This document shows, piece by piece, positions 13,706 through 60,419 of a stretch of 64,000 nt of DNA (position 1 is its first letter; each line of letters begins with the position of its first letter). This DNA comes from Okamejei kenojei (Eukaryota), in assembly GCA_035221665.1 (NCBI GenBank), contig CM069160.1, positions 7,688,001-7,752,000 of the forward strand. The letters are read 5' to 3'. Both the position numbers and the translations under genes were made by a program. The notes beneath the pieces are model-generated. The model was given only the letters and a program-made list of their open reading frames with translations. It was not told the DNA's origin and searched no databases.

Positions 13706-14310
13706 GAGGTTTATAAAACCATGGTGCAGAGTGCTGGTGTCAGCACGATGCTGTTACACTCCCGGGATTCCCCGGTCACCGTCCACAGTGCACAGTCCAA
13801 CCTCTCCCTGACCGCCGGCAGCCGCTTCCCACAAGCTCCGCCGTCAGCACGGACTGGCACGGATCCGTTCACTCCATCGTGAACCTCCCGGCCGCCTCTC
13901 CGGCCGAGGGAAGCGGAGAACATCACAGCTCCGTGTCCCAGGGTGGGGAATACAGACCGGGAACCTGTCACTTGCCGGCACCGACCTCACCCCATCACCG
14001 CGTTATACCGTGTAGGAAGGAACTGCAGATGCTGCTTTAAACTGAAGATAGACACAAAAACCTGCAGTAACTCAGCGGGTCAGACAGCATCTCTGGAGAG
14101 AAGGAATAGGTGATGTTTCGGGTCGAGACCCTTCTTCAGATGCTGTCTGACCCGATGAGTTACTCCAGGTTTTTGTGTCTATCCTCGTTGTTCTGGCTCT
14201 CTCCTCTCAAGCCCCGAGGCAGGGCCGCGACCCGAAACATGAAACATCCCTCTCCCTCCACAGATGCCACCCGACCCGTCAATGTGTTTCAACAGTCTGT
14301 TTCCTCTGCG

Positions 14311-15390
14311 TGTCTGTGTGTCAGGGTCTGTGTGTCAGGGTCTGTGTGTCAGGGTCTGTGTCTCAGTGTCTGTGTCTCAGGGTCTGTGTCTCAGGGTCTG
14401 TGTCAGGGTCTGTGTGTCAGAGTTTGTGTGTCAGGGTCTGTGTCGGGGTCTGTGGGTCAGGGTTTGTATTGGGGTCTGTGTGTCAGGGTCTGTGTGTCGG
14501 GGTCTGTGTGTCGGAGTCTGTGTGTCAGGGTCTGTGTCTCATGGTCTGTGTGTCAGGGTCTGTGTGTCAGGGTCTGTGTCTCAGGGTCTATGTCTCAGGA
14601 TCTACGTGTTAGGGTCTGTGTGTCAGGGTCTGTGTGTCAGGGTCTGTGTGTCAGGGACCTGTGTGTCAGGGACTGTGTGTCAGGGATCTGTGTCTCAGGG
14701 TCTATGTTTCAGGGTCTGTGTGTCAGGGTCTGTGTCAGGGTCTGTGTGTCAGGGTCTGTGTCAGGGTCTGTGTGTCAGGGTCTGTGTGTCAGGGTCTGTG
14801 TGTCAGGGTCTGTGTGGGGTCTGTGTGTCAGGGTCTGCGTGTCAGGGTCTGTGTCTCAGGGTCTATGTCTCAGGGTTTATGTGTTAGGGTCTGTGTCAGG
14901 GTCTGTGTCTCAGAGTCTGTGTGTCACGGTCTGTGTGTCAGGGTCTGTGTCAGGGTCTGTGTCAGGGTCTGTGTGTCAGGGTTTGATGTCAGGGTCTCTG
15001 TGTCAGGGTCTGTGTCAGGGTCTGTGTGTCAGGGTCTGTGTCAGGGTCTGTGTGTCAGGGTCTGTGTGGCAGGGTCTGTGTGTCAGGATCTGCGTGTCAG
15101 GGTCTGTGTCAGGGTCTCTGTGTCAGGGTCTGTCTGTCAGGGTCTGTGTCAGCGTCTGTGTGTCAGGGTCTGTCTCAGGGTCTGTGTCAGGGTATGTGTG
15201 TCAGGCTCTGTGTCAGGGTCTGTGTTTCAGGGTCTGTGTGTGAGGTCTGTGTGTCGAGGTCTGCGTCAGGGTCTGTGTGTCAGGATGTGTGTGTCATGGT
15301 CTGTATGTCAGGGTCTGTGTCATGGTCTGTGTGTCAGGGTCTGTGTGTCAGGGTCTGTGTGTCAGGGTCTGTGTGTCAGGGTCTGTGTCG
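14311..15390. repeat. Minisatellite (GTCAGGGTCTGTGT)n, 14/12-bp units
   Basis: Directly visible tandem array ending ~30 bp upstream of the promoter ISRE. Confidence 0.97.
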
Positions 15391-15418: not shown

Positions 15419-15720
15419 CACTTTCGGTTTCATGAGCTAACCTGCCACCGACCCTGACGCGCTGCTCTACCCGGCAACCGGTGACGCGGCGGCAGCTCTG
15501 CTGCTGATTGGACAGACTGGGATATTTTTTACCAACTTCACGGGGCTCTTCTGCCCGGAGACCGGTGACTCACGGGCGGGCAGGACTGTGATTGGCCGCG
15601 GACACGGCGCCGACCAATCAGCGCGGGGTGCGGGGGCGAAGGGGGCGGGCGAGCGGAGCAGAGTGAATGCGCATGCGCCCCGGACTCGCAAACTCACTTC
15701 AACCTGAACAGTCGGGGGCG
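15419..15720 (+). promoter_or_regulatory. MHC class I promoter: ISRE + two tandem S-X-Y modules + extra CCAAT, GC box and NRF1-like site
   Basis: CACTTTCGGTTTCA 15419-15432. X1 CCCGGCAACCGGTG 15470-15483 with X2 TGACGC, 20 bp, CTGATTGG 15504-15511. Second X1 CCCGGAGACCGGTG 15554-15567 with TGACTCA, 20 bp, GTGATTGG 15588-15595. CCAAT 15614, GGGGCGGG ~15642, TGCGCATGCG ~15668. CpG-rich, no TATA. Confidence 0.85.
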
Positions 15721-15723
15721 ACG

Positions 15724-15790
15724 ATGCTGCGCCCGCTGCTGCTGCCGCTGCTGCTGCTGCCCGCCCTCCTGGCTGGAGCCCAGGCTGCAG
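15724..15790 (+). CDS. MHC class I heavy chain exon 1 (signal peptide)
   Basis: MLRPLLLPLLLLPALLAGAQAA+G; phase-1 donor CAG/GTGGGT splices in frame to GSHSL of the alpha1 exon. Linkage across 13.5 kb is inferred from phase and the S-X-Y promoter. Confidence 0.88.
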
Positions 15791-15836
15791 GTGGGTGAGG
15801 GGCAGTGATGGGCTGCCAACCCAGTCCCCGACAGTG

Positions 15837-15942
15837 GCTGAGGGGCAGTGTGTGGGTGAGGGGCAGTGTGTGGGTGAGGGGCAGTGTGTGGGTGAGGGGC
15901 AGTGTGTGGGTGAGGGACAGTGTGTGTGCGAGGGGCAGTGTC
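15837..15942. repeat. 18-bp minisatellite (GTGAGGGGCAGTGTGTGG) x~5-6 in intron 1
   Basis: Visible tandem repeat; absent from the inverted copy. Confidence 0.9.
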
Positions 15943-16469
15943 GGGCTGGGCACCTTGTTCCGGTCAGGGAATGAGGGGGGTCAGTGGGCAGATGGGCACA
16001 GGGTTCACCAGTCAGTGGGTGAGGGTCAGTGTCGGGCTGGGCTCAGCATAATAACCCCTGGTACATTGAAACAGGGAGATCAGGCGGGTAAATAAGGGAG
16101 ATGAGGGATTTGGCAGATAAGTTAAAGGAGTATCCTGAGAGTGTCAACAAGTATGTAAAGAGTAAATGGGTAATTTTTGAGAGATTAGAACCCGTGCAGG
16201 ATGTGCGTGAATCCACAGGAGATTGGTGAGGTTGCATCTGTATTAACAGTACAGAAGGCCATAGAAGGCAAGAATTACAGGAAATGAACAGCCATTTCTT
16301 GGAATGAATCCTCATAAAAGAGGCGGTGCTGTAGAAACAAAGAACTGTAGACGCTGGCTGGTTATTACACAAGAGGACATAAAGTGCTGGAGTAACTCGG
16401 CAGGCCAGGCAGCATTACTGGAGAGTCTGAATAATGATATCAACCCAAAACGTCACCTATCGATGTTGT

Positions 16470-16497
16470 CTGAAGAAGGGTCTTGACTCGAAACGTT
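16470..16497 (+). ncRNA. Minimal hammerhead-ribozyme-like motif in a Penelope-type repeat
   Basis: CTGAAGA-A-GGGTC-TT-GACTC-GAAACGTT; inverted copy at 59542-59569. Confidence 0.5.
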
Positions 16498-16629
16498 AGC
16501 GATCCATATTCACCGGTGATGCTGCCTGATCCGCTGAGCTACTCCAGCACTTTGCATTCTTTATTTTTATGGCATATTAAGGTGGATAAGTACCTAAAGG
16601 CCGGTTCACATATATCCTTGTAAACTGGG

Positions 16630-17890
16630 AGGCGCATCGGTAGAGCTACTATCTTACAGAGGCCAGGGTTCAATCCTGACTACGGGTGCAATAACCATAT
16701 AACCATATAACATATAACCATATAACAATTACAGCACGGAAACGGGCCCTCCCGGCCCTTCCAGTCCGTGCCGACCATTTGTTTTCCCCTAGTCCCATCT
16801 ACCTGCACTCAGACCATACCCCTCCATTCCATTCACGTCCATATACCTATCCACTTTACTCTTAAATGTTAAAATCGATCCTGCCTCCACCACTTCTGCT
16901 GGAAGCTGATTCCACACAGCCACCACCCTCTGAGTAAAGAAGTTCCCCCTCACGTTACCCCGAAACCTCTGTCCCTTAATTCTCATGTCATGCCCTCTTG
17001 TTTGAATGTTCCCTACCCTCAATGGGAAAAACGTATCCACGTCAACTCTGTCTATCCCTTTCATAATTTTAAAGACCTCAATCAAGTCCCCCCTTAACCT
17101 CCTGCGCTCCAAAGAATAAAGACCTAACTTGTTCAACCTTTCTCTGTAACATAGTTGCTGGAATCCTGGCAACATTCTAGTAAATCTCCTCTGTACTCTC
17201 TCTATTTTGTTGACATCCTTCCTATAACTAGGCGACCAAAATTGTACACCATACTCCAGAATTGGTCTTACCAATGCCTTGTACAATTTTAACATTACTT
17301 CCCTACTCCTATATTCAATGCTCTGATTTATAAAGGCCAGCACACCAAAGGCTTTCTTTACCACCCTATCTACATGCGATTCCACCTTCAGGGAACTATG
17401 CACAGTTATTCCTAGATCCCTCTGTTCCACAGCATTCCTCAATTCCCTACCATTTACCATGTACGTCCTATTTTGATTCGTCCTGCCAAGATGTAGCACT
17501 TCACACTTATCAGCATTAAACTCCATCTGTCATCTTTCAGCCCACTTTTCCAAATGGCCCAAATCTCTCTGTAGACTTTGAAAATCTACTTCATTATCCA
17601 CAACACCACCTATCTTAGTATCATCTGCATACTTACTTATCCAATTTTCCACCCCAATGTGTACGGAGGTTATACGTTCTCCCTAAGACCGTGTGGGGTT
17701 TCTCCGATATCTTCGATTTCCTCTCACACTCTATAGTCGAATAGGTTTGTAGGTTAATTGGCTTAGTGTCAATGTAATTGTCCCTAGTGTTTAGGGATCG
17801 TGTGATTGAGCGGGGACCGTTGGTCTGTGCGCACTCGGTGGACTGAAGGGCCTATTTCAACGTGTATCTCTAAAATGATAAACTAAATTG
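16630..17890 (+). mobile_element. tRNA-derived SINE split by a CR1 insertion
   Basis: B box GGTTCAATCC ~16667; the uninterrupted version is at 59120-59410 on minus. Confidence 0.75.
16693..17654 (-). mobile_element. Young 5'-truncated CR1 LINE, present only in the left copy
   Basis: Open ORF2 C-terminus 16789-17526, (AACCATAT)n tail, CAAT duplicated at 16689-16692 and 17655-17658; empty site at ~59345-59352. Confidence 0.92.
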
Positions 17891-17998
17891 TGGGAAGCTA
17901 GGGCAGGAATTGCAGGGGCTCTGGCAGAATTATTTGCATTATCTATAGATACCAGTGAGCTACCAGAGACTGGAGGCGGTGATCGTTGTGTCCTTATT

Positions 17999-18580
17999 TA
18001 ATTAGAGCTGCAAGGACAGGTCAGGGCACAACAGGGCGGTTGCAGGGGGAGGTACCTGGGGAGGGGGTGGTCTGGGTGGGAAGGGATGAGTGAAGCAAGG
18101 AGTTGCAGAGGGAGTGGTCTGTGTGGAAGGCAGAGAGCAGAACTACAGGACACAGAGGAGATGTGGGTGAGGGATCCACCTATGGCAGCCGGGGGCAAAC
18201 ACGATTACATCTCGGATGACCTAGAATGGAAAGTCTCATCTTGGGACCAGATGAGGCAGAGGCAGAGACATTGGGAACAGGGAATAGCGTATTTGCAAAA
18301 GTCAGGGTGGGAGGAGGTGTAGTGGAGATAACTGTGTGAGTCGGTAGGTTTGCAGCAGACATCAGTCAATAGTCTGTCCCCAGTGTTGGAGACAGAGAGA
18401 TCACGAGAGGGGAGAGCGGCATCAGAGAAAGTCCAGGTAAATGTGAGGGCGGGGTGGGTTAGTGATGAAGTTAATTAAATCAATGAGTTCTGCACGGGAG
18501 CAGGAGGCGGCCCCGATGCAGTCGTTGATGTAGCAGAGAACGAGTTGTGGGAGGTGCCAGTGTACGATTGGAACAAGGAC
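17999..18580 (-). mobile_element. Penelope-like element RT/EN remnant
   Basis: PQLVLCYINDCIGAASC (YIDD-type motif); continues at 19901-20010 with MSTRMGPSCACLF. Inverted copy at ~58425-59005. Confidence 0.8.
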
Positions 18581-19900
18581 AAAATATTGATATTTACAAT
18601 ATATATTAACCATTTAGTTGAGGAAATTAAATGCAACATCTGCTAGTTTGTGGATGACACAAAGCTGGGTGGCAGTGTGAGCTGTGAGGAGGATGCTATG
18701 AGGCTGCAGGGTGACTTGGATAGGTTGGGTGAGTGGGCAGATGCTTGGCAGATGCAGTATAATGTGGATAAATGTGAGGTTATCTACTTTGTTGGCAAGA
18801 ACTGGAAATCAGATTATTGTCTGAATGTTGTCAGATTATGAAAAGAGGAGGTGCAACGAGACCCGGGGGTCCTTGTACATCAGTCGCAGAATGTAAGCAT
18901 GCAGGTACAGCAGGCAGTGAAGAAGTTGGCCTTCATTCCAAGAGGATTTGAGTTTTGGAGCAAGGAGGCCCTAATGCATTTGTACAGGGCCCTGATGAGA
19001 CCACACCTGGAGTATTGTGTGCAACTTTGGTCTCTTAATTTGAGGAAGGACATTCTTGCTATTGAGGGAGTGCTGTGTAGGTTCACCAGGTTAATTCCCG
19101 GGATGGCGGGACTGACATATGATGAAATAATTGGTCGATTGGGCCTATATTCACTGGAATTTAGGATGAGAGGAGATCTTATAGAAACATATACAATTCT
19201 TAAAGGATTGCACAGGATAGATTCAGGAAACATGTTCCCGCTGTTGGGTGAGTCCAGAACCAGGGGCCACAGTTTATGAAGGAACTTTTTCGGAGGGAGG
19301 AGGGGTAAATTGGAGGAGCAGCACCTCATATTTTGCTTGGGCAGTTTGCACCCCAGCGGTATGAACATTGACTTCTCTAATGTCAGGTAGTCCTTACTGT
19401 CTCCTCCCCTTCTCAGCTCCCCCTCAGCCCTCTGGCTCCACCTCTTCCTTTCTCCTCCCCCCCCCCAACCCCCCCCCCCCCCCAACCCCCCCCTCCCCCC
19501 CTCCCCCCCCCCCCTTACATCAGTTTGAAGAAGGGTTTCGGCCCGAAACGCTGCCTATTTCCTTCGTCCCATAGATGCTGCCTCCAGCAATTTTGTCTAG
19601 CCACAGTTTAAGAATAAGGAGTAGGCTATTTTGGACTGAGATGTGGAAAAACGTTTTCACCCAGAGAGTTGTGAATCTGTGGAATTCTCTACCACAGAAG
19701 GCAGTGGAGGTCAATTCACTGGATGTATTCAAGAGATAGTTAAATTTAGCTTTTGGGGATGAGGGAATCAAGGGATATGGGGAAAAAGCAGGAACGGGGT
19801 ACTGAATTTAGATGATCAGCCATGATCATATTGAATGACCGTGCTGGCTTGAAGGGACGAATGGCCTACTGCTGCACCATTTTTCATGTTTTCTATATTT
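18581..19900 (+). mobile_element. CR1 fragment inserted in a Penelope element
   Basis: TSD CAAGGAC at 18574-18580 and 19901-19907; DDTKLGG and RPHLEYCVQ peptides. Confidence 0.85.
19277..19599 (+). mobile_element. Penelope 3' fragment (EN C-terminus plus hammerhead-bearing repeat) inserted in the CR1
   Basis: KLEEQHLIFCLGSLHPSGMNIDFSN; TSD GCCACAGTTTA at 19266-19276 and 19600-19610. Confidence 0.8.
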
Positions 19901-22900
19901 CAAGGACTGTTTGACGTGAATAATAAAAAGGCAGGCGCAGCTGGGGCCCATGCGGGTGCTCATGACTGCACCTTTAAATTGGAGAAAGTGAGAGGTGAAA
20001 GGAGAAGTGTAGAGGGTGAGGACAGGTTTGACCCGGCCTCTGGCAGCTCGTTCCAAACACCCACCACCCTTGGAGTGAAAATCCTGCCCCCAAGTTGTTA
20101 CTAAATCTTGCCCCTCTCACCTTAAACCTGTGCTCTCTGGTGCTTGATTCTCCGAGCCTGGATAATCCCCTCATGATTTTATACACCTCCATGTGCTCAA
20201 GCCTCTATAAAGTGGATGCTCACAGTCTTTTCCCAGTATTGAGTCCAACGTTTGTTGACACTGTTTAAAAGACATTTGGACAGGTACATGGGTGGGAAAC
20301 ATAAGGACATGCAGATGCTGGTTTACAAAAGGTCAGGCAGCATCTCTGGAGAATATGCACAGGTGATGTTTCAGGTCGGGACCTTCTTCAGACAGCAGAC
20401 AGGTGGGGGGGGGGGGCAAAAAGCTGGAAGAGGTGGGGGAGGGTCTGGTGAGTGATAGGTGGATACAAGGGTGGGAGGGGGGTTGGTGGGTCGATGGACA
20501 AGGGCAGAGATGAAGAGGCAAAAGGTGCCACACAATGACAGATGAGTTGAACTGTGTGAAAGCGAGTCTTACCACCGAGGCCCTGTGCTGGGCACAGCTC
20601 AGTCCGGGCACGTTAATGGGTGAGGCACGGCCATGCAGGAGGCTGGGCGAGGCGTGGAAGGTGGGCGGGAAGTGGGAGGGCAGGAAACGGCCAGAGTACA
20701 CAATATCTGCCTCCACCACCACCCCTGGCAATGCGTTCCAGGACCCACTATGTGTAAATAAACCTTTCCCTGTACATCTCAGCTTATAACTATGCCCTCT
20801 AGTGGGGGACATGTTGCAGGTTAATTGGCCTTTGTCAAATATCCCTGGTGTGTGGGAAGTGGATTTGAAAGTGGGATAACATGAACAAGTGTGAATGGGT
20901 GATCGATGGTCAGCATGAACTCGGTGGGCTGAAGGGCCTGTTTCCATGCTGCGTCTCCAAAGCAAACAATTAAAGCACCGTGGATCACTTGCATCTTAAT
21001 CTTCTGGATCAGCTGCCACGGGGGACTTGATCACTTGCCTTACAGTCACCCGCACACACTACAGGGGTTTGTTGGAGGAGGGTGGGGGTGGAGGTGAAGG
21101 GAGTGTGGCATGTGGGTGCTAGTGGAGGGTGGGGTGTCTGAATGGGGAATGTGTTTTGGGTGTATGTTTATGTGTGTGTGAGTGAGTGAGTGTGTATGTG
21201 GGCGTGTGTGGGCGTGTGTGGGTGTGTGTGTGTGTGTATGGGCGTGTGTGGGCGTGCATGGGCATGTGTGGGTGTGGTGAGTGTGAGTGTGGGTGTGTGT
21301 GTATGTGAGTGTGTGTGTGGGTATNNNNNNNNNNNNNNNNNNNNNNNNNNNNNNNNNNNNNNNNNNNNNNNNNNNNNNNNNNNNNNNNNNNNNNNNNNNN
21401 NNNNNNNNNNNNNNNNNNNNNNNNNNNNNNNNNNNNNNNNNNNNNNNNNNNNNNNNNNNNNNNNGGGGTGTCTGTGTGTGGTGTGTGGGTGTGTGTGTGT
21501 GGGGGGGGTGTCTGTGTGGTGTGTGGGTGTAATTGGGACTGTGTGTGCATGTGTGTGTGTGTGTGGGGGGGTTGTCTGTGTGTGGATGTGTGTGTGTTTG
21601 TGTGTGTGTGTTTGTGGGTGTGTGGGTATGTGCGTTGGGGTGTGTGTGGGTCTGTGTGTGTGCGTGCGTGTGTGTGTGTGGGGGGGAGGGGGTCTGCGTG
21701 TGTGCGTGTGTGGGGGGGGGGGGGGGGTCTGCATGTGTGGTGTGTGTGTGTGTGTGTACGATTGGAACATGGACAAGATATTGATATTAACAATATTTCT
21801 TAATGAATTAGTTGAGGAAATTAAATGTAACATTTCCAAGTTTGTGGATGACACAAAGCTGGGTGGCAGTGTGAGCTGTGAGGAGGATGCTATGAGGCTG
21901 CAGGGTGACTTGGATAGGTTGGGTGAGTGGGCAGATGCTTGGCAGATGCAGTATAATGTGGATAAATGTGAGGTTATCTACTTTGTTGGCAAGAACTGGA
22001 AATCAGATTATTGTCTGAATGTTGTCAGATTAGGAAAAGAGGAGGTGCAACGAGACCTGGGGGTCCTTGTACATCAGTCACAGAATGTAAGCATGCAGGT
22101 ACAGCAGGCAGTGAAGAAGTTGGCCTTCATTCCAAGAGGATTTGAGTTTTGGAGCAAGGAGGCCCTACTGCAGTTGTACAGGGCCCCGGTGAGACCACAC
22201 CTGGAGTATTGTGTGCAACTTTGCTCTCTTAATTTGAGGAAGGACATTCTTGCTATTGAGGGAGTGCAGTGTAGGTTCACCAGGTTAATTCCCGGGATGG
22301 CGGGACTGACATATGATGAAATAATTGGTCGATTGGGCCTATATTCACTGGAATTTAGGATGAGAGGAGATCTTATAGAAACATATACAATTCTTAAAGG
22401 ATTGGACAGGATAGATTCAGGAAAAATGTTCCCGCTGTTGGATGAGTCCAGAACCAGGGGCCACAGTTTAAGTAGGAACTTTTTCGGAGGGAGGAGGGGT
22501 AAATTGGAGGAGCAGCACCTCATATTTTGCTTGGGCAGTTTGCACCCCAACAGTATGAACATTGACTTCTCTAATGTCAGGTAGTCCTTACTGTCTCCTC
22601 TCCTTCTCAGCTCCCCCTCAGCCCTCTGGCTCCACCTCTTCCTTTCTTCTCCCCCCCCCCCCCCCCCCCCCCCCCCGCCACACCCTCACATCAGTCTGAA
22701 GAAGGGATTTGGCCCGAAATGTTGCCTATTTCCTTCGTTCCATAGATGCTGCCTCATCCACTGAGTTTCTCCAGTATTTTTGTCTAGCCACAGTTTAAGA
22801 ATAAGGGCTAGGCCATTTAGGACTGATATGAGGAAAAACTTTTTCACTAAGAGAGTTGTGAATCTGTGGAATTCTCTGCCACAGAAGCCAGTGGACGTCA

Positions 22901-24156
22901 GTTCACTGGATGTTTTCAAGGGAGTTACATTTAGCTTTCAGGGATGAAGGAATCAAGGGATATGGGGAAAAAGCAGGAACGGGTTATTGATTTTAGATGA
23001 TCAGCCATGATCATATTGAATGACCGTGCTGGCATGAAGGGCCGAATGGCCTACACCTGCACCTATTTTTCCATGTTTTCTATATTTCTAGGACTGCATA
23101 ACGTAAATAATAAAAATAGGCAGGCACAGGATAGATTCATGAAAAATGTTCCCGCTGTTGGGTGAGTCCAGAACCAGGGGCCACAGTTTAAGTAGGAACT
23201 TTTTCGGAGGGAGGAAGGGTAAATTGGAGGAGCAGCACCTCATATTTTGCTTGGGCAGTTTGCACCCCAACAGTATGAACATTGACTTCTCTAATGTCAG
23301 GTAGTCCTTATTGTCTCCTCCCCTTCTCAGCTCCCCCTCAGCCCTCTGGCTCCACCTCTTCCTTTCTTCTCTCCCCCTCCCCCCCCCTTACATGAGTTTG
23401 AAGAAGGGTTTCGGCCCGAAACGCTGCCTATTTCCTTCGTCCCATAGATGTTGCCTCCACCAATTTTGTCTAGCCACAGTTTAAGAATAAGGAGTAGGCT
23501 ATTTTGGACTGTGATGTGGAAAAACGTTTTCACCCAGAGAGTTGTGAATCTGTGGAATTCTCTACCACAGAAGGCAGTGGAGGCCAATTCACTGGATGTA
23601 TTCAAGAGATAGTTAAATTTACCTTTTAGGGATGAGGGAATCAAGGGATATGGGGAAAAAGCAGGAACGGGGTACTGAATTTAGATGATCAGCCATGATC
23701 ATATTGAATGACCGTGCTGGCTTGAAGGGACGAATGGCCTCGTGCTGCACCATTTTTCTATGTTTTCTATATTTCTAGGACTGTTTGACGTGAATAATAA
23801 AAAGGCCGGCATAGCTGGGGCCCATGCGGGTGCTCATGAATGCACCTTTAAATTGGAGAAAGTGAGAGGTGAAAGGAGAAGTGTAGAGGGTGAGGACAGG
23901 TTTGACCCGGCCTCTGGCAGCTCGGTCCAAACACCCATCACCCTTGGAGTGAAAAACCTGCCCCCAAGTTGTTATTAAATCTTGCCCCTCTCACCTTAAA
24001 CCTGTGCTCTCTGGTTGTTGATTCTCCGAGCCTGGATAATCCCCTCATGATTTTATACACCTCCATGTGCTCAAGCCTCTATAAAGTGGATGCTCACAGT
24101 CTGTTCACAGTGTTGAGTCTAACGTTTGATGACACTGTTTAAAATACATTTGGACA

Positions 24157-26094
24157 ACAGAGGAGGACAAGGGGCTTAATTAGGAAAGGGAAAATGGAGT
24201 ATGAAAGAAAACTGGCAGGAAACATAAATACTGACTGCAAAAGTTTTTATCGATATGTGAAGCGAAAAAGATTAGTTAAAACAAATGTAGGTCCCTTGCA
24301 GTCAGAAACAGGTGAATTGATCATGGGGAACAATGACATGGCAGACCAATTGAATAACTACTTTGGTTCTGTCTTCACTAAGGAAGACATAAATAATTTG
24401 CCGGAAATACAAGGGGATCGCGGGTCAAATGAGATGGAGAAACTGAGTGAAATCCAGGTTAGCCGGAAAGTGGTGTTAGGTAAATTGAATAGATTAAGGG
24501 CCGATAAATCCCCAGGGCCAGATAGGCTGCATCCCAGGGTACTTAAGGAAGTAGCCCCAGAAATAGCAGATGTCTTAGTGATAATTTTTCAAAAATCTTT
24601 AGATTCTGGAGTAGTTCCTGAGGATTGGAGCGTAGCTAATGTAACCCCACTTTTTAAAAAAGCGAGGGAGAGAGAAAACGTGGAATTACAGACCAGTTAG
24701 TCTAACATCGGTAGTGGGGAAACTGCTAGAGTCAGTTATTAAAGATGTGATAGCAGCGCATTTGGAAAGTGATGAAATCATTGGACAAAGTCAGCATGGA
24801 TTTACGAAAGGTAAATCATGTCTGACGAATCTTATTGAATTTTTTGAGGATGTAACTAGTAGAGTGGATGAGGGAGAAGCAGTGGATGTGTTATATCTGG
24901 ACTTTCAGAACGCTTTCGACAAAGTCCCACACAAGAGATTAGTATACAAACATAAAGCACACGGTATTGGTGGTTCAGTATTGATGTGTATAGAGAACTG
25001 GCTGGCAGACAGGAAGCAAAGAGTAGGAGCGAACGGGTCCTTCTCAGGATGGCAGGCAGCGACTAGTGGGGTGCCGCAAGGCTCAGTGCTGGGACCCCAG
25101 CTATTTACAATATATATTAATTATTTGGACGAGGGAATTAAATGCAACATCTCGAAGTTTGCGGATTAGAGGAAGCTGGGGGGCAGTGTTAGCTGTGAGG
25201 AGGATGCTAGGAGGCTGCAAGATAACTTGGATAGACTGGGTGAGTGGGCAAATGCATGGCAGATGCAGTATAATGTGGATAAATGTGAGGTTATCCACTT
25301 TGGTGGCAAAAACAGGAAAGTAGACTATTATTTGAATGGTGACCGATTAGGAAAAGGGGAGATGCAACGAGACCTGGGTGTCATGGTGCACCAGTCATTG
25401 AAAGTAGGCATGCAGGTGCAGCAGGCTGAGAAGAAAGCGAATGGAATGTTGGCATTCATAACAAAAGGATTTGAGTACAAGAGCAGGGAGGTTCTACTGC
25501 AGTTGTACAGGATCTTGGTGAGGCCGCACCTGGAGTATTGCTTACAGTTTTGGTTTCCAAATCTGAGGAAAGACATTCTTGCCATAGAGGGAGTACAGAG
25601 AAGGTTCAGCAGACTGATTCATGGGATGGCAGGACTTCCATATGAAGAAAGACTGGATAGACTCGGCTTGTACTCGCTGGAATTTAGAAGATTGAGCGGG
25701 CATCTCATAAGTACTTACAAAATTCTTAAGGGGTTGGAGAGACTAGATGCAGGAAGATTGTTCCCGATGTCGGGGAAGTCCAGGACAAGGGGTCACAGTT
25801 TAAGGATAAGGGGGAAGTCTTTTAGGACCGAGATAGGAAAATCGTTTTTCACACAGAGAGTGGTGAATCTGTGGAATTCTCTGCCACAGAAGGTAGCTGA
25901 GGCCAGTTCATTGGCTATATTTAACAGGGAGTTAGATGTGGCCCTTGTGGCTAAAGGGATCAAGGGGTATGGAGAGAAGGCAGGTACAGGATACTGAGTT
26001 GGATGATCGGCCATGATCATATTGAATGGCGGTGCAGGCTCGAAGGGCCAAATGGCATACTCCTGCACCTATTTTCTATGTTTCTATGTTTCTA
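24157..26094 (+). mobile_element. 1.9-kb 5'-truncated CR1 LINE
   Basis: ORF2 pieces 24194-25997 ([33 protein letters not shown]); TSD TGGACA at 24151-24156 and 26095-26100; (TTTCTATG)n tail. Confidence 0.95.
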
Positions 26095-26228
26095 TGGACA
26101 GGTACATGGGTGGGAAACATAAGGACAAGCAGATGCTGGTTTACAAATGGCCAGGCAGCATCTCTGGAGAAAATGGACAAGTGATGTTTCAGGTCGGGAC
26201 CTTCTTCAGGCAGCAGACAGATTGCGGT

Positions 26229-26276
<48 letters not shown>

Positions 26277-27005
26277 AAAGTTGGAAGAGGTAGGGGAGGG
26301 ACTGGTGATGTTAGGTGGATACATTGGTGGGGGGGGGGGGGGTTGATGGGTCGATGACAAGTGCAAGAGATGAAGAGCAAAAAGGTGCCACACAATGACA
26401 GAAGAGTTGAAAATGTGTGACTGCGAGTCTTATACCCCCGAGACCCAGTGCTGGGCACAGCTCAGTCCGGGCACGTTAATGGGTGAGGCAACGCCATGCA
26501 GGAGGCTTTGGTCGAGGCGTGGAAGTTTGGGCGGGCAGTGGGAGGGGCAGGAGAGACGGCCAGAGAACACAACAATCTGCCTCCCCCACCCAACCACCAC
26601 GCCCTGGCAATGCGTTCCAGGCCCCCCACTCCAACTCTGTGTAAATAAACCTTCCCCTGTACATCTCACTTGTAACTATGCCCTCTAGTGGGGGACATGT
26701 TGCAGGTTAATTGGCCTTTGTAAAATATCCCCGGTGTGTGGGGAGTGGATTTGAAAGTGGGATAACAGGGAACAAGTGTGAATGGGTGATCGATGGTCAG
26801 CATTAACTCGGTGGGCTGAAGAGCCTGTTTCCATGCTGTATCTCCAAAGCAAACAATTAAATCACCGTGGATCTCTTGCATCTGAATCTTCTGGATCAGC
26901 TGCCACGGGGGCCTTGATCACGTGCCTTACAATCACCCACAGAGGCAACATGGGAACGTCGGGGGAGGGTGGGGGTGGGGTGGATGTGTGTGTGTGTGTG
27001 TGTGT

Positions 27006-27056
<51 letters not shown>

Positions 27057-28525
27057 TGGTGTGGTGTGTGTGTCCTCGGGTCTGTTGTTGGGGTGTGTTG
27101 TTGTGGGGGGATGTGTGTGCGTGTGTGATTGTGTGTGTGCGTCTCCCCCCATTTCTCCCCCCTTTCCCCCCCCACTACTTCTTCTTCTCTTATCCTCCCC
27201 CCGCCCCCTGTCTCTCTCCCCCTCTCTCTCGCCCCCTCCTCTCCTTTATCTCACCCACTCTCTCTCCCCCCTCTCTCCTCTTTCTCTCTCTCCAACGTCC
27301 CCCCATCATCTCAACTCTCTCCACGTTTTCCCACTCCAGCCCCGTTCTCACCCCACTATCCCCCATGACCCACCGCTGTCTCTCCCACCTTTTCTCCCCC
27401 TCTTCTCCCCCTCTCTCCCCCTCTCCCCCCCAATCTCCCCCAGTCTCTCTCTCCCCCATCCCTCCCTCCTCCACCTCCTCTCCCCCGTCCCCTGCCCATC
27501 CTCTTCTCCCCACCTCTACCCCCACCTTCTAACCAAGCCTCTCCCCTCCTTCCCCCACCTCTACCCCCTCTCCACCCTTTCCACCCTTTCTTCCCCTCTA
27601 GCAAGACTTTCTTCCCCCTCTCCCTCTCACCCCTCTCTTCTCCCCCTCTCTATCCGCCCCCTCTTCCTCCTTCTCTTCCCCTTCGCTCTCCATATCTCTC
27701 TTCACAACTACCCCCCCCCCCCTGAGCCCACCCCACTCACACCCCTTTCCCACCCTCCCTCCCCCCTCTCGCCTCCTCCCCTTCTGCAACTCTCTCTCCC
27801 CCCACTCGAATCTCCCCCTCTCTTTCCCCCCTCTCTTTCCCCCTCTCTCTTTCCCCCCTCTCTTTTCCCCCCTTCTTACTTTCCCCCTCTCTCTTTCCCC
27901 TTTTTCTCAACTCTTTCCCCCCCTCTCTCATCCCATCCTAATCCCCATCCTCTCTCCCTCTCACTCCTCCTCCCCCCTCTTCCTCTTCTCTCTCCCCCGC
28001 TCTCTCCTCCCCCCCTCTTTCTTCTCCCCCTATCTCTGTGTGTGTGAGGTGTGTATATGTAGGTTGTGCGGCGGTGTGTGGGTGTGGTGTGATTTTTTTT
28101 GTGTGTGTTAATATGTGGGGTGTGTGTTGTGAGGTCTGTGCGTGTGTGTTTGTGGGTGCGGGGGGGTTTGTGTGTGTTGGTGTGGGTGTGTGTGGGTGAG
28201 TGTGTGGGGGATGCGTGATGGGTGTGTGGGGAGGTGTGGGTAGGTTGTGTTGGTGGATGGGTGTGTGTAGGGCGTTGAGGTGGTGTGTTTGTTTTGTGTG
28301 TGGGTGGGTGTGTGTGAGTGTGTGTGTGTGTGTGTAGAGTGTGGTGTATGTGTTGGGGGGGGGTTTGTGGGTGGGAGGTGTGGGGTGGGGGTGTGTGTGG
28401 GTGTGGGTGTGTGGAAGTGTGTGTGTGTGTGTGGGGCGGGATGTGGGCATAATTGTGTGTGCATGCGTGTGTGTGCGTGCGGGTGTGTGAGTGCGTGCGT
28501 GTGGGTGTGTGTATGTGTGTGTGTG

Positions 28526-29169
28526 TATGAGATATGCGATATGCTCGAACAATCACTACTCAAGACTAAATCGTGGAAGCAAGAGATTCTTTATTTTCGA
28601 GTCCGCAGTCGGGCGCCTCTCCAAGTTGAGACACACCGAAGTCAGAAGGGTATAACCCCCTTTATAATACACACAATTCCTACATCCAACCTCCCCTCGG
28701 ACCCTTTTCCAATCAGAGTCTGAGGTGCACAATCTGTAGTACGTCCCCCCAGTACCTCCCACATCATACATCGCATGTCCAGACATGTGCATGGTAATGA
28801 ACAGTTACCCTTGACCATGGGTGTGTTGTAATATCCATTGAGATATTTTACTAAGCATGCTCAGAAATTGTTCATGACCTACCCTAGTTTTACTCACCTC
28901 ACCTCCAACTGAACTCTCTCAGTTCTCCTATATCAGCACTAAAGCTAAGCTATAGTGACAAGGGTCCCATCTATCACTCCCTTCTACTGATAGGGATCTA
29001 TCTACATCACTCCCTTGTACCGCTATGCAATGCTATCACTTCTTACTCAAGGACTGCTCTGGTAACTTTTATACACAGCTGTGTCAGAACCCTCTTCCTG
29101 GCCTCTATCGGTTTGAATCCTCATTAAAGTCCCTTACAATAGTGGGGTTTAATCACTTTATCCCTCACA
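28526..29169 (-). mobile_element. Probable solo LTR in intron 1
   Basis: Right end CCTCACA is complementary to TGTGAGG, which starts the related copy at 63664. TATAAA and AATAAA occur in LTR order on minus. Confidence 0.65.
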
Positions 29170-29261
29170 TGTGTGTGTGTGTGTGGGTGTGTGTGTGTGG
29201 GGGTGTGTGGGGTGTGGGCCTGTGTATCTCCCGCTGTCTCTGACTCCGTGCCCGGTTCCAG

Positions 29262-29522
29262 GCTCCCACTCGCTGCATTATTTCGCCACGGGGGTGGCCC
29301 CGGGCTGGGGGGTCCCTGAGTTCACGGTGGTCGGATACGTGGACGAGGAGCAGATTGGTCACTACGACAGCGACAGAGGGGACGTGGAGCCGCGGCAGCG
29401 GTGGATGGCGAAGAGTCAGTTCGCCGACTACTGGGAGCAGGAGACACAGAGGGCGCGGGGCTACGAACCGTGGTTCACGGCCAACATCCAGACCATGCAG
29501 CAGCGAACCAACCAGAGCGGGG
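29262..29522 (+). CDS. MHC class I heavy chain exon 2 (alpha1 domain)
   Basis: GSHSLHYFATGVAPGWGVPEFTVVGYVDEEQIGHYDSDRGDVEPRQRWMAKSQFADYWEQETQRARGYEPWFTANIQTMQQRTNQSG; TTCCAG acceptor, GTGAGA donor, 261 nt, phase 1/1; Y7, Y59, R84 and N86-Q-S equivalents present. Confidence 0.97.
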
Positions 29523-29649
29523 GTGAGAGCGGGGATGTACCACGCGGGTGTGTGGTGTGTGAGGGGGTGGGGGGGATGTACCAACGTGTGTGTGTGGTGG
29601 GGTGGGGGTGGGGGGGCCGGACAGCCCTACTGGACGGCAATTGTTGCAG

Positions 29650-29929
29650 GGATCCACCACTATCCAGTGATGTTTGGCTGTGAGCTGCTGCGCTCGGACG
29701 GCTCCACCACCGGGTTCAATCGCAGTTTCGGCTGGGAGCGGAGAGGTACTTGATCAGCTCTCGACAAGGAGCACAATGAGTGGTGACGCCCGTCTCCAAA
29801 CATGGGTTGTTGACCAAACACAAGTGGAGCGGGACACCGCAACGCCCATACTTGGAAGGACTAACCTGAGGAAGAGTGCATCGAGTGGCTGCAAAATTTG
29901 TCCCACCGGACAGAGTCAACTCACCCCCT
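29650..29929 (+). CDS. MHC class I exon 3 (alpha2 domain), frameshifted as assembled
   Basis: TTGCAG acceptor; GIH..VMFGCEL.RSDGSTTGF, DKEH, VTPV, LTKHKW (TKHKW 29813-29827), EEECIEWLQ and GQSQLTP in shifting frames; GTGAGT donor at 29930. Confidence 0.9.
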
Positions 29930-29949
29930 GTGAGTGGGTTCAGTCATGT

Positions 29950-32900
29950 TGCCTCCACCCCCCTCACTTCCACTACCCACCCCCTCTCCATCTGTCGCCG
30001 TCGCCCCACTCGCTCCTCTCCCCCTCTCCCTCCCCCTCATCCTACCTCACTCACTCCCCTCTCGTCTCGCTCTCCCCTCTCCCTCTCTACCCCTCTCCCT
30101 CTCTACCCCTTTCTCTCTGCCCCACTCCTCCACCCCTTTTCTAGTTCCCCCCTCCGTCCCCCCCTGTTCCTCTTTCTCTCCCCCAGTCCCCCTCTCTCCC
30201 CTCCCTCTCCTCTCTCCCTTCTCTCTGCCCCACTCTACCACCCTTTCTAGATCCCCTTCCCTCCTCCCCCCTCCCCCCAATTCCCCCGCCCTCCCTTCCT
30301 CCCCTTTACCCTCCCCCTTCCCTCCACTTCCCTCCCCTTCCCTCCCCTTCCTCCCCCCCCCCCCCCCTTTGTTTTCCCTTACCCTCCGTCTCCCACTTCC
30401 CTNNNNNNNNNNNNNNNNNNNNNNNNNNNNNNNNNNNNNNNNNNNNNNNNNNNNNNNNNNNNNNNNNNNNNNNNNNNNNNNNNNNNNNNNNNNNNNNNNN
30501 NNNNNNNNNNNNNNNNNNNNNNNNNNNNNNNNNNNNNNNNNNNNNNNNCCCTCTCTCTCACACTCCCTCTCCCCCTCCCTCCCTCCCTCCACCCTCCCTC
30601 CCCCTCCCTCCCCCCTTCTCCTCCCCCTCTCTCTCCCCCTCCCTCCCCCTCTCTCGTCCCCCCCTGCCCCCCATCTTTCCTCCCCCTCCCTCCCTCCCCC
30701 CTCTCTCTCCCCCTCCCTCCCCCCTCTCCTCCCCCTCCCCTACCCCCTCTCTCTCCCCCTCTGCTCCTCAACTCTCTCCTTCCCCCTCCCTCCCCCTCTC
30801 CCTCCCCCCTCCCACCCCCTCTCTCCCACCTCTACCCCCCCTCCCTCCCTCCCTCCCTCCTCCCTCCCTCCTCTCTCTCCCCCTCTCTCTCTCCCCTCCA
30901 CTTCCCCCCCTCTCTACTCTCCCCTCTCTCTCCCCCTCACCCTCCCCCTCTCTCCCTCCCCCTTCTTCTCCACCACCCTCTCTCCCCCCCTCTCTCTCAC
31001 CCCCTCCCTACCCCCCCTCCCCCCCTCCCCCCCTCCCCTCCCCCTCCTCTCTCCCCCCCCTTTCCCACTTTCCTCTCTACCCTTCTCTCTCCCCCCTCGC
31101 CCTCCCCCCCTCCCTCCCCCCCTCCCTCCCCCCTCCCCCCCCCTCCCTCCCTCCCTCTCTTCCCCCCACTTTCCCACTTTCCTCTCTACCCTTTCCCCCC
31201 CTATCTCTCCCCTTCCTCCCCACCTCCTCCTCCTCCGTCTCTCCCCTATCTCTCTCCCATCTCTCTCCATCTCACACACACATCTCACCTCTATGCAACA
31301 CTGCACACCATTGCCCTAACCCCACCTCCCGCTCCCCTTTCTCTATCTCGCTCCCTTTTCTCACCACTCCTAACCTCTCCACGCCCCTCTCTTATCTCAG
31401 CTCTCTCTTCCTCACTCGCCCCGGCCGTCTTTCCCCCCATCTCTTCCCCCCCGTTTTTCCCCTCTCTCCCCCTCTCGCTCTTCCATCCCCTCTCCTCTCA
31501 CCCTCTCCATCTTTCATCTCTTTCAAACTAGCAAGTAGAGAGGGATAGAGCGAACAGAACTATCAATCATCTTCATGAGAATAAAACGCTAACACAACAA
31601 CTATCCCTCATCAAATCTCTACATCCACAGAGATCCCCAGCAACTCATATCAGCGACTTTATACTCCCCTATATCCGCCCCCCTCTTCCCGTCCCCCCCC
31701 CTCCTCAACCCTCGATCCCCCCTATCTCCACCCCCCTATACCCCATCCACACCCTACCCAATCTCTTCACACAAATATAATACACGAACAAAATACCCAA
31801 ATCTCTACCACACGAGAACATAAAAACATCCACACCTTATAAACGCCCTTATCCACCCTATATACCCCAGCCTCACAACCGACTACACACCTACTAACCC
31901 CCATATCAACACCTCGATCCCACCATATACCCCTCGATAAGACCAAAGATAGACCATCCAATCTCCCCCAATATCCCCACCCTAGCCCCAAATCATACCT
32001 CATTAGCACCCCTATATCACCCCCTTTATTCCCAACCTATATCCCACGATCTCTACCCAACGCCGAGAAACAAAGCTATACTAAAACGACCTCATAAAAC
32101 GAACTCTAAAAGAACTCTAAACCGAAATCTCAAGACAGCATCCCCCGAACTATCCAACGACATAGAAACCGTAAGATAAAAAGAAATATAAAAAATAGTA
32201 TGACGAAAGAGAGAAAACAGATAGAAAATATATAAACATGCATAGATCAAAAAATATAAACACGGGAGAAAAAAAAATATATAATATCTATACAAAATAA
32301 GAAACATATATAAAATACTCCCAATAAAAGATAAAGAAAACCGACCACGCCCATCTAGCTAACCACTACAAAGCAAACATAACATACCCAAAACCTTCAA
32401 AATCTATCACTCCTAATCTCTCGGACCCGCTCACGGTCCACCTTTCTTTCAAACATATCTCCATAGACATCTATATATCTCCCCCTCTCAAGCACCCTAG
32501 ACCCCCCTCTGACAAACCTATAAACCAGCTCCCTAAGAAACAAGAGCCAACGAAAAAAAAACATATAAACCATCACATAACGTCGCACCCTTCTAAATAT
32601 CGATCCCTTGTTATCATCTCCATTATTACAATCTAAACAATTATATCTCACCCTACATCTCTCCACTTTCGCTCCTCTCCTCCCCTCTCTCTCTCAAAAT
32701 CGCTCTATATCGATTGCAAAGGACTCTCCCCAATCTACATCTACACTCTCTCTCATTAATGATACTCGAAAATCTCGCACTCAACCCCTATATATCGCTG
32801 AAAATATATAGAAAAGAGAGTGGAAATAAAATTCTATTTCCTCATAATCTCTATATTTACCTTCTATCGTACACTTTATCTATAAAATACAACTATAATC

Positions 32901-35900
32901 TACAAAAGTAAGAAAATAATAATAAGTCAATATAAAATTGATAATAACAAATATAGCTAAATAGAACTATATGAAGATACAATATAACATATCTAATCCC
33001 CACTACTAGAATAACACTATTCTATCAACCAGAATACTCTCTATACACTATCTCTCCCACTCTACAAATCTATAACAAAGATATACCCAAGAGCTCACAA
33101 ATATAGAAGACACTCTACAAACCCTAATATCACAAACGATATAAAAATCTATAAACCACTCTATCCCAAACTATCTCACACCTATACCCTCTAATCCCTC
33201 GCTACCTAAACCACTCACTTCGTCAACCCTTACTACTAACACCATTCTTACCACCCCGTCTCCAACATTATAACAAAATATAGAAAAACATAACAAAACA
33301 AAAATATAACACAGGAAGAACAAATAGAAGACCTATCCAACAGTAATAAAACGAGAAGCACTATACATCTATCATCCCTTGTTATATATAAAATATTCCA
33401 CATATCCAAAACAATGATATAGAAAAAATTGCAGATAATGTTAGAGATAAGAAGATATAGAGAAAATAGATTAGGAGAGAATATAGACATCATAGATATC
33501 GTACAATATATCTCATACGCTGCCAACTATCTGAACCATATCTTTCCACTATCATTCTCCTACGCTATCAATCTGCAGAAATCGCTACCCCAAGATACAA
33601 ACCTAGATAAACATATATAGAAAAAATATATCGCCAATAACAATCTAAAACAATCGCCCAATCTCCCAACCCAACTCTCAACCCCTCTCCCCCCCTCTCC
33701 CAACTACTATGCACCAAATGACGAGCACAATATTCGATGCGTAACTCTCTCATGTGGGGCATAGAGATCTACACAAGTAGCGATAAAAAGATATATGAAA
33801 AACGATCGATGCAAAAAGAATGGAAATAGATCTGAAAAAAATATATGAATAAAAGGGATATGAAAACAATATATTACAACACGATATATGCAAAAGATCT
33901 CTGAACACATAACGATGAAAAAATAATATGCAATAAATAAAGAAGGAAAATACAAGATGAAAAAATACCATCTGAAAAACCAAGATGACACCAAAAGATA
34001 TGAAACCATAATATGCCCCATATAATTATCTAAAAAAATCTATATAATTATAGAAATTACATCTATAGTCACGATTCCAATATTCATATATAAAAAATCT
34101 ATCTAACACAGATATACCATCATATAGCCCCCCTCTACTCCTCTCACTCATCAATCAGCAAAATGCCTAAATTTTACTAATCTGACCCCGATACATTCTA
34201 TGATCTTCTCTTGTCATTCCAGTCTCTATCACCCTCCCACTACATCTCTCAATTAGATCAACAGTCTCCATTGATCGCTAAAAAAATCCCATAGATCCTA
34301 TCTATATATACTAGTACATTCGCGATATTTGATATACACAAATGTGAGATATCAACATCAGTATAATAAAAAATGTAGAAAAAATGAATCAGTAAATAAG
34401 ACATTTCTAAAACACACGATAGCTCATATATAAATCTAGAACACCCCTCGCGCCCCCATCGATCCCCTCTATCTCACCCTAGATCGCACCCTCCACCTCA
34501 CACCCTCTTCCACCCCCCATCTCATCTGCCCACCTCCCTTCGCCCCCGCCCTATGCCCCCCTACATTTGCCAACACAATCTGCCCCACTCCCTCTGCCAA
34601 AACTCACTATGCACACAATAACCATATGCCAACATAATCTGCCAATACCCACTCTGTGCACCACCACGGCAAAAAATATATGCAAACATATTATTTATCA
34701 AAATATATATCTAATTTACTATTCATTACCTCTCGACTACGAAAATCACCTCTATATCAACCTATCGCTTTCACTAACCAACTAGACAAAACCTCTCTCC
34801 CTCAATCGCCATACGCCACCCGTCATAGTCGTATATAACGATAAACCATCCTTAATTTCCTACTATGCCCACCCTAATTCTCTCTATTTTCTCGACCGCT
34901 CTCCACCACCACCTACTTACTCTCACTCTATTCCCGATCCCTTGCTCTACTAACCATCCCCATCTATCCTCTCTCTCTCTATACATTATCTCTCCCCTTT
35001 GCGCTCAACAACTCCCCCGCAATACACATTCTCCCATACTCTCTCCTCACCTCTCCACCTTTCTCAACCCAATCTATAGACACCTAGATAAAATAAGAAC
35101 CCTCTCCCCCAGCTCTCCCCACTCTACCCCCTCTACCACCCTCATAAAACATCTACCCCATCTCTCCCCCCCTCATCCCCCTTTCTCTCGCCAGTCTCAT
35201 CTGCCAATCTATCGCACCAATTCTCCCTCCCCCTCTCTCTATTCCCCTCTAATTGTACCCTCTGCCACAACCGTCTACTTCTCTTCTAATAGCTCTCCCA
35301 CCCCCCCATATCTCGACTCTGTCCCCCTCCTCTCTAACCATCCGCCCTCTCTCCCCTCTCTACTCTCCATTTCTCTCTCCACTCCCCCATCTCACTCCAT
35401 CCCATAATACCCCTAGTCTTCCCCCTCACTCCTCCCCCCCCGTCTTTATCCAAACGTTCTATTTACGACTCTCACTGCGCGTACCCCATCTCTCTCTCAT
35501 CCCTCCCCCTCTCTTCCCCCTCTCTCCCCCACTCTCCCCCCCCCTACTCCCCCTCTCACGTACCCTCTCACCACAATCTCACCACCCCTCGAATCCACCA
35601 CTATCACACCTTATCCCCCCTCCCAACACCATCTCCCACCACACCTCTCCCACGTAATCCACCGACGCCCTCCCTCTCACACATCTCTCATCCATTGTTC
35701 TCTCTCCAATCTTCCAATCACACCCCCTTCTCTCTCCCACCAAGCTCTCTCACAGTTCTCTCTCCTCGTCTCACTCTCCCTCTCCTCTCTGATCTCCTCT
35801 CCCACCTCGCTCTCGCCCCCCCTCTCTCTCCTGCCCCTCTCTCTCTGTCTCTGCCCCCTCTCTTCCACTTCTCATTCTCATCCTACTCTCAAGCTGCATC

Positions 35901-36893
35901 CCTCGCTACCCCCCCTCGCCTCCCCCCCTCGCTCCCCCTCGCTCTCCCCTCGCCACTCTCACCCCTCTCGCCCACTAGTCTAACCCCCCCCTCTCTCCCC
36001 CCTCCTCCACCCCTGCTCTCCCCCTCTAGGCCCCTTCTCTCACCCTCTTTCGCTGCTTTCACCTCTCTCAATTTGCATCTATCTCTCCCACCTCATCGCG
36101 ACCCATATATACTCTCTGCACCCCTCTCGCTGCCCCCCTCTCCTCTGCCCCCTCTCTCGCCCCCCGCTCTCTGCCCCCCTGTCTCTGCCCCCCTGTACTC
36201 TGCCCCCCTATCTCTGCCCCCTCTCTCTGCCCCCCTCCACTCTGCCCCCCTCCCTCTGCCCCCCTCCCTCCCCTGGCCCCACTCCCTCTGCCCCCTCCCT
36301 ATGGCACCCCCTCTGGCCCCCCGCTCTGCCCCTCTCCTGCCCACCTCTCATTCCTCCCACCCTCTCTATCTCCATCTCTCCCTTCCATATCTCTCCTCTC
36401 TTTCCCCCCTCTCTCCCCCCTCTCTCCTCCCCCCTCTGCTCCCCGCCTCTCCCCCCATCTACTCCTCCACTCTCAACCATCTAAAATTTCCTCGTCTGTG
36501 CCCCCCTCCGTCTCTCTCCTTGTTATCCCGTCTCTCCTCTCCCCCCCCCTCCATCTCTCACTCTCTCCCCTCCCCCACTTGCTCTATACCCATCCCCCTC
36601 TATCCTCTCTCTCTCTCTATAACTTCTCTCGCAAATTTTCTATCGACACGACATCTTAACTCACCCTCACTCCACCTTCATACCTAATCTCATCCGTCAC
36701 TACCCTTTATCACCCCCATCTATCTCCATATCTCCCTCTATCACTCTCTCCCCCCTCGCTCAACCCTCGCTACCCCGCTCTCCCCTCCGCTCGCTCCCGC
36801 CCACTCTCCCCCATATCGCCCCATCATCCCCCCCTCTACTCTGCCCAACTCTCATCATGCCCCCTCCCCTCTGCCACACCTCTTCTCTGTAGA
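29950..36893. other. Low-complexity / low-quality sequence (C/T tracts and a G-depleted A/C-rich stretch)
   Basis: Extreme strand-specific G depletion with no recognisable repeat or exon. Confidence 0.7.
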
Positions 36894-45799: not shown

Positions 45800-46167
45800 T
45801 TAAGGGGTTGGACAGGCTAGATGCAGGAAGATTGTTCCCGATGTTGGGGAAGTCCAGGACAAGGGGTCACAGCTTAAGGATAAGGGGGAAATCCTTTAAG
45901 ACCGAGATGAGAAAGACTTTCTTCACACAGAGAGTGGTGAGTCTCTGGAACTCTCTGCCACAGAGGGTAGTTGAGGCCAGTTCATTGGCTATATTTAAGA
46001 GTGAGTTGGATGTGGCCCTTGTGGCTAAGGGGATCAGAGGGTATGGAGAGAAGGCAGGTACGGGATACTGAGTTGGATGATCAGCCATGATCATATTGAA
46101 TGGCGGTGCAGGCTCGAAGGGCTGAATGGCCTACTCCTGCACCTAATTTCTATGTTTCTATGTTTCT
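45800..46167 (+). mobile_element. Short young CR1 3' insertion in a single array unit
   Basis: TSD AGGAGATC at 45792-45799 and 46168-46175; empty site in the sister unit at ~49431-49440. Confidence 0.9.
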
Positions 46168-51501: not shown

Positions 51502-51529
51502 AACGTTTCGGGCCGAAACCCTTCTTCAG
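51502..51529 (-). ncRNA. Minimal hammerhead-ribozyme-like motif (one of the best-preserved copies)
   Basis: CTGAAGA-A-GGGTT-TC-GGCCC-GAAACGTT, ~120 bp after the Penelope EN stop codon. Confidence 0.55.
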
Positions 51530-51543
51530 ACTGATGTGAGGGT

Positions 51544-51584
<41 letters not shown>

Positions 51585-59119: not shown

Positions 59120-59410
59120 TTAGTTTATCGTTTTAGAGATACACGCGGAAATAGGCCCTTCAGCCCATCGAGTCCGCACAGTCCAGCGATCCCCGCCCAC
59201 TCACACGATCCTACACACTAGGAACAATTACATTGACACTAAGCCAATTAACCTACAAATCTATTCGACTTTAGAGTGTGAGAGGAAATCGAAGATATCG
59301 GAGAAACCCCACACGGTCTTAAGGAGAACGTATAAACTCCGTACACATTGCACCCGTAGTCAGGATCGAACCCTGGCCTCTGTAAGATAGTAGCTCTACC
59401 GATGCGCCTC
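59120..59410 (-). mobile_element. tRNA-derived SINE (uninterrupted paralog of 16630-17890)
   Basis: B box GGTTCGATCC on minus at ~59363-59372. Confidence 0.75.
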
Positions 59411-60068: not shown

Positions 60069-60110
60069 CTGCAGCCTGGGCTCCAGCCAGGAGGGCGAGC
60101 AGCCCCCGAC
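60069..60110 (-). pseudogene. MHC class I paralog exon 1 remnant lacking the ATG
   Basis: Minus strand GTCGGGGGC|TGCTCGCCCTCCTGGCTGGAGCCCAGGCTGCAG/GTGGGT; 38 bp including the ATG are missing relative to 15711-15790. Confidence 0.88.
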
Positions 60111-60391: not shown

Positions 60392-60419
60392 TGAAGCGGG
60401 AGAGAGAGGTGGGGCCCAC

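Follow-up and report, generated by a model that had tools for sequence, protein, structure and literature searches.

A probable UAA-lineage MHC class I gene of a multi-copy, skate-only branch in Okamejei kenojei, damaged in the assembly

In sharks and rays, the major histocompatibility complex (MHC) has been described as containing a single class Ia gene next to PSMB8/9 and TAP, with extra Ia-like genes found among zinc-finger genes (Verissimo et al. 2023, PMC10751288). In that study no skate is analysed, the thorny skate having been left out with its MHC unplaced, and the function of MHC-Ia-like genes is not described but referred to as "unpublished data"; its supplement places a catshark Ia-like gene 8 Mb from PSMB8. 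The roles of the peptide-anchor residues and class I promoter elements discussed below follow PMC8236899, PMC6523485, PMC7573153, PMC12562908 and bioRxiv 10.1101/2020.09.06.274720. Here we analysed a stretch of 64,000 nucleotides from the skate Okamejei kenojei (G000:C30:7688001-7752000, hereafter the window, C30 coordinates being on the scale of contig CM069160.1) and found the 5' half of a further member of the known class I family, within the UAA lineage, which may be either a classical locus or an Ia-like duplicate. The whole of the evidence makes it probable that this is a complete, expressed and peptide-presenting gene of a multi-copy skate-only branch, damaged in the assembly only.

As assembled, the window gene consists of leader, alpha1 and alpha2 exons with GT/AG ends and phase 1 at every junction (Table 1), and this structure together with the class I domain match identifies it as an MHC class I heavy-chain gene. 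Its alpha1 domain matches Pfam MHC_I (E 2.5e-22) and, among solved structures, best and without gaps nurse shark UAA (6LUP, E 5.4e-28), while a 231-nt short-read contig matches exon 2 with two differences and no gaps. Exon 1 is tied to the class I family by its leader match to P0001, a clearnose skate class I cDNA protein, and is the only leader copy between the run of 500 N (500-N run) at C30:7667588 and alpha1. Intron 1 is about 5.2 kb in paralog A (G000:C30:6542600-6560000; L015, L002, L013) and about 5.9 kb in copy C of the same genome. Chance exons were rejected as an explanation. An earlier reading of the letters alone (the sequence-only reading) had proposed these three phase-compatible exons, and they stand at its positions with its intron lengths; so do Y7, Y59 and R84, all in the intact alpha1, and both alpha2 cysteines, present in one frame or another.

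Table 1. Coordinates of the class I features in the window (positions of the whole stretch).
Feature	Position	Strand	Remarks
ISRE-like element	15422..15431	+	motif match to the consensus
X1-, X2 (CRE)- and Y (inverted CCAAT)-like boxes	15470..15511	+	motif matches in order; boxes typical of an MHC promoter
Exon 1, signal peptide	15724..15790	+	67 nt, ATG, GT donor, phase 1; 20/22 residues identical to P0001
Intron 1	15791..29261	+	13,471 nt, enlarged by repeated LINE (long interspersed nuclear element)-containing units
Exon 2, alpha1 domain	29262..29522	+	261 nt, AG/GT, open frame, Y7/Y59/R84
Intron 2	29523..29649	+	127 nt
Exon 3, alpha2 domain	29650..29929	+	AG/GT; about 24 small indels as assembled
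Start of intron 3	29930..36893	+	pyrimidine-rich, then unrecognisable up to the 500-N run; without alpha3
Inverted copy of promoter and exon 1, without start codon	60059..60410	-	intron-1 copy continues towards the 500-N run

The window gene is a member of the UAA (class Ia) lineage. A tree of 38 alpha1 rows, from which copy C and a further copy, D, were excluded as frameshifted, places it in a seven-row skate-only group nested in a 31-row group that includes class I of rays, sharks and bony vertebrates (support 95/85), and it groups with no divergent copy of its own genome; seven such copies, at 30-45% identity, lie outside on long branches that carry a long-branch warning. It thus groups with UAA sequences and apart from the stand-ins for the old non-classical lineages, these stand-ins being unnamed divergent copies of the same genome, with no reference named UBA, UCA, UDA or UEA. 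The closest proteins are all from skates, with identities of 64-71% to seven skate class I proteins and 56% to 6LUP. The sequence-only reading's "UAA-related locus or close duplicate" is therefore borne out, and the phylogeny that it had suggested, here of alpha1 and with stand-ins in place of named UBA, UCA and UDA references, adds the skate-only branch within the UAA-type group.

Two leader types occur in skates. The little-skate counterparts of copy B, the copy beside PSMB8, use the leader that every other ray and shark examined has, and the second type is common to the window gene, paralog A, copy C and four skate proteins. As the alpha3 domains of A and B are separated by only 7 substitutions, the two types are closely related, with leader and alpha1 as their main points of difference; a literature search, in which subscription journals were thinly covered, yielded nothing on a pair of class Ia-type branches among skates. 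The MHC class I antigen of the clearnose skate (P0001, UniRef M4R434) and P0002, P0005, P0007 and P0059 (little skate, thorny skate and Rhinoraja) have the same leader type as the window gene, sit on the same tree branch and are 67-71% identical to it in alpha1, but the window gene differs from them at 10-12 of 21 groove residues, by F171 and by its unassembled 3' half. The classical nurse shark Gici-UAA*01 (6LUP) aligns with it over alpha1 without gaps and shares Y7, Y59, R84, T143, K146 and Y159, while the window gene has F171 and a leader family other than that of the shark UAA proteins and does not lie beside PSMB8/TAP on the scaffold.

The assembled exon 3 measures 280 nt against 273 in the intact paralog and brings three stops once the exons are joined. 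Relative to paralog A, the window alpha2 shows 24 indel events and 31 substitutions over 294 columns, whereas A and copy B are separated by 30 substitutions and no indel event. Three DNA runs of one sample contain the stretch, and of the 12 short-read contig pieces listed on alpha2 three (X3-9, X3-12 and X1-7) are of window-copy type by their private bases, the remaining nine being paralog-like or too short for assignment. Contig X3-9 differs from the window over 29642-29718 by no substitution and five gap letters (net -3), and its loose ends agree with the intron and exon bases of the window; X3-12 gives a net +4 over 29804-29927. The lengths that result match paralog A's open frame (66 vs 69 and 130 vs 126). 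Furthermore, the noise is regional: gap openings between repeat copies, measurable in the 32 of 44 tiles that had a match, reach 4.3-6.1% in seven of seven tiles just beyond the 500-N run, a figure inflated by tiles there that match one another, and are 0.1-2.4% in 11 intron-1 tiles (16 to 26 kb). Four other alpha3 copies likewise carry 13-29 indel events each relative to A. Because contigs with the private bases of the window copy lack the indels over most of alpha2, the frameshifts are largely, and most of the indels demonstrably, assembly errors; an old, decayed pseudogene as their cause was rejected.

With alpha2 partly restored, six anchors of the peptide termini are present, namely Y7, Y59, R84, T143, K146 and Y159. 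The sequence-only reading held T143, K146 and W147 to be readable, which is so for the first two, in one frame or another of the assembled exon; the codon of W147 falls on a one-base loss and could equally hide a Leu, as in paralog A, Trp occupying this position in 31 of 33 aligned rows. It had also placed Y159 and Y171 in corrupted sequence, from which contigs X1-7 and X3-12 recover the former, while position 171 reads TTT in the loose end of X1-7 and X3-12 shows no departure from the TTT of the window. F171 is thus likely to be real, judging from these contigs, and at most seven of the eight anchors are then present, so that the full set that would mark a classical class Ia locus is lacking; a literature search on the effect of Y171F returned nothing relevant. 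Nor do the anchors separate classical from non-classical genes, since P0048, a nurse shark protein with a non-classical label, has all eight, as does a divergent copy at 8.46 Mb of the same genome (G000:C30:8445000-8466000; L005, L053, L054; 39% alpha1 identity), a putative UDA gene. As proof of classical status the anchors were consequently discarded, and the path from them to "classical-like" does not hold; the gene moreover has F171, lies far from PSMB8/TAP on the scaffold and is assembled in its 5' half only.

The divergence of the branch is concentrated in the peptide groove. Between the window gene and paralog A, 11 of 21 groove residues but 12 of 66 others differ (p 0.004), and in five of six comparisons the differences cluster in the groove with p below 0.05. 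At the codon level, nonsynonymous and synonymous divergence (dN and dS) are 0.55 and 0.20 for groove codons and 0.12 and 0.15 for the others, a dN/dS of about 2.7 against 0.8 on small counts. Over the seven sequences of the skate-only branch, in which paralogs and species are mixed, the mean groove difference is 50%. In the copy B group it is 0.9% over 11 rows, a figure biased by most rows forming one 90% cluster; the fairer cross-genus comparison of copy B with little skate shows 1 of 21 groove and 8 of 66 other residues to differ. In addition, P0009 has a different alpha2.

Upstream of exon 1 lies a module of interferon-stimulated response element (ISRE)-like, X1-, X2 (cAMP response element, CRE)- and Y-like motifs, matched to consensus sequences. 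The homologous stretch before copy B is 77% alike with X2 and Y changed, and the module is split in A and deleted in C, which leaves the window gene as the only assembled copy joining an intact module to an open alpha1, although at least eight promoter copies of its type were counted. If the gene is complete, it would function in the manner of class Ia molecules: it would be transcribed from this interferon-responsive X-Y promoter, its heavy chain would pair with beta-2-microglobulin, and a short peptide would be held by its ends, by Y7, Y59 and Y159 at one and by R84, T143, K146 and probably W147 at the other, with one peptide-end hydrogen bond lost through F171, and would be shown to CD8 T cells. 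Directly in front of the promoter, a GT-rich unit measuring about 20 nt is repeated in a tandem array (window 14300-15390 and 60400-62700), which is common to the branch copies.

By scaffold order, the window gene is remote from the antigen-processing genes. PSMB8 lies at C30 1.505 Mb and nearly identical TAP-family exons at C30:1423001, 1449766 and 5536102, the third 4 Mb from the others; only five of 176 TAP candidates were scored, which makes these places a lower bound. The window gene is 6.2 Mb from PSMB8 and the first two TAP exons and 2.2 Mb from the third, and copy B is 50 kb from PSMB8 with one 500-N run between them. A C2H2 zinc-finger gene of seven or more fingers (G000:C30:7776175-7776912, L031) is found 58 kb from alpha1 and 24 kb past the window end. 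This extra UAA-type copy on the MHC chromosome with a zinc-finger gene nearby resembles the elasmobranch MHC-Ia-like genes of PMC10751288, with the difference that the groove diversity here is seen in the unlinked branch and not in the linked copy. Such long-range order must be read with care: 500-N runs, which their recurrence every 35-70 kb in the examined stretches suggests to be assembly gaps, delimit contigs of about 50-60 kb, so that it rests on scaffolding. The window gene could on that account be the main polymorphic classical locus of this skate, put in the wrong place or broken up by scaffolding, with the other branch copies as relics or uncollapsed haplotypes, which would agree with its intact module and open alpha1 and with the groove-focused divergence; we consider this unlikely given the distances to PSMB8 and TAP, the zinc-finger setting of Ia-like copies (PMC10751288), the number of promoter copies and F171.

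The sequence-only reading omitted that the window holds no alpha3, transmembrane or cytoplasmic-tail exon; protein and DNA searches found no alpha3 in the surrounding 264 kb (7.588-7.852 Mb) either. In paralog A, alpha3 follows about 5.6 kb further on, and at the equivalent place in the window the sequence quality collapses: a degraded alpha3 sought in 29930-36893 gave a score of only 35 with the alpha3 tile of A, and the intron-3 tiles of A match this interval solely through shared pyrimidine content, which is uninformative for joining the halves. Exons of the window-gene type on C30 number five alpha1 (at 1.149, 1.555, 3.027, 6.551 and 7.717 Mb), four alpha2 and six alpha3. Two of the latter, at 3.565 and 3.575 Mb (G000:C30:3560000-3580000; L048-L050), are orphans pointing away from a 500-N run, with no alpha1 or alpha2 within the 50 kb examined, and behind the one at 3.575 Mb come transmembrane and tail exons of the window gene's branch; 4 Mb from the window gene, the two orphans are candidates for its missing half. 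Two further promoter-leader copies, at 4.52 and 7.41 Mb, stop 3-6 kb short of a 500-N run. The simplest reading is that class I genes here break in long introns with their halves scaffolded apart, and the 3' half of the window gene has likely been cut off by a contig end.

That the window gene is instead a pseudogene truly limited to its 5' half, produced by a recent segmental duplication and either lacking alpha3 and the membrane anchor from the start or deprived of them later, has a small share of our belief. The partial duplicates nearby at 7.659, 7.663 and 7.748 Mb, the lack of alpha3 around the gene and F171 are what would be expected of it, whereas the open alpha1, the intact splice sites and promoter, the in-frame alpha2 contigs, the orphan 3' halves elsewhere and the quality collapse where alpha3 is expected all argue the other way. 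Membership of an old non-classical lineage (UBA, UCA, UDA or UEA), to which the anchors shared with non-classical proteins and a tree without references named for these lineages might point, is very improbable for a gene that groups with skate and ray UAA-type proteins while seven divergent copies fall outside.

Several observations nevertheless weigh against a complete and functional gene of the skate-only branch. F171 stands where tyrosine is almost invariant (32 of 33 rows have Y and the other has H), neither orphan 3' half could be tied to the window gene, and broken relatives are common: copy C has no alpha2 and a frameshifted alpha1, paralog A has a stop read directly after the transmembrane stretch, and the alpha1 of the 7.659 Mb copy (L039) is cut off after about 12 bases by repeat sequence. 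With genuinely broken relatives in the genome, there is room for a true 3' truncation. The short-read contigs come from a single sample at a low depth of 4-8, and no contig of window-copy type covers about 50 nt of alpha2 (29753-29803); the support of the skate-only group (90/84) is below the starred level, and the synonymous counts behind the dN/dS values are tiny (about 3 and about 6).

As it stands, the locus is a useful annotation, being a probably functional class I gene which gene-calling programs would overlook or label a pseudogene, and it carries a warning that the third intron, rich in pyrimidines, is where class I genes break in this assembly. Tentatively, and with more doubt than confidence, one may go further and suppose that the classical job has moved in skates, the PSMB8/TAP-linked copy having the ancestral leader, a frozen groove and changed X2 and Y boxes, and the groove diversity residing in the unlinked, skate-only branch, whose leader is new and whose ISRE/X/Y promoter is intact, with the window gene as its best-preserved member here. 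If true, this would break with the pattern of a single TAP-linked class Ia gene that sharks and rays otherwise follow; the variable class I gene of skates would have become uncoupled from PSMB8/TAP, a point relevant to the view that the linkage is ancestral and keeps these genes in co-evolution.

Among the other class I copies, copy B (G000:C30:1545000-1563000; L021, L022) is of the ancestral-type branch and has a noisy near-duplicate, D, at 1.147 Mb. In paralog A the distal promoter is displaced by rearrangement; with its L147 and its stop, this copy may represent a relic, a secreted form or an error. The three near-identical TAP-family exons may reflect either a TAP duplication or uncollapsed haplotypes.

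Partial duplicates surround the window gene. An inverted one (window 43000-60410, minus strand) faces it across the 500-N run, its start codon lost by a deletion across CTG repeats; no alpha1 remnant was found in it (score 73.5, with shuffles up to 84). Another (G000:C30:7658577-7667587, L039) has promoter and leader with an intact ATG and a second promoter copy inside its intron. Lastly, a 17.5-kb inverted duplicate, 95% alike, flanks a 500-N run (G000:C30:7789284-7806491 and 7829796-7847076) and is possibly a haplotype kept twice.

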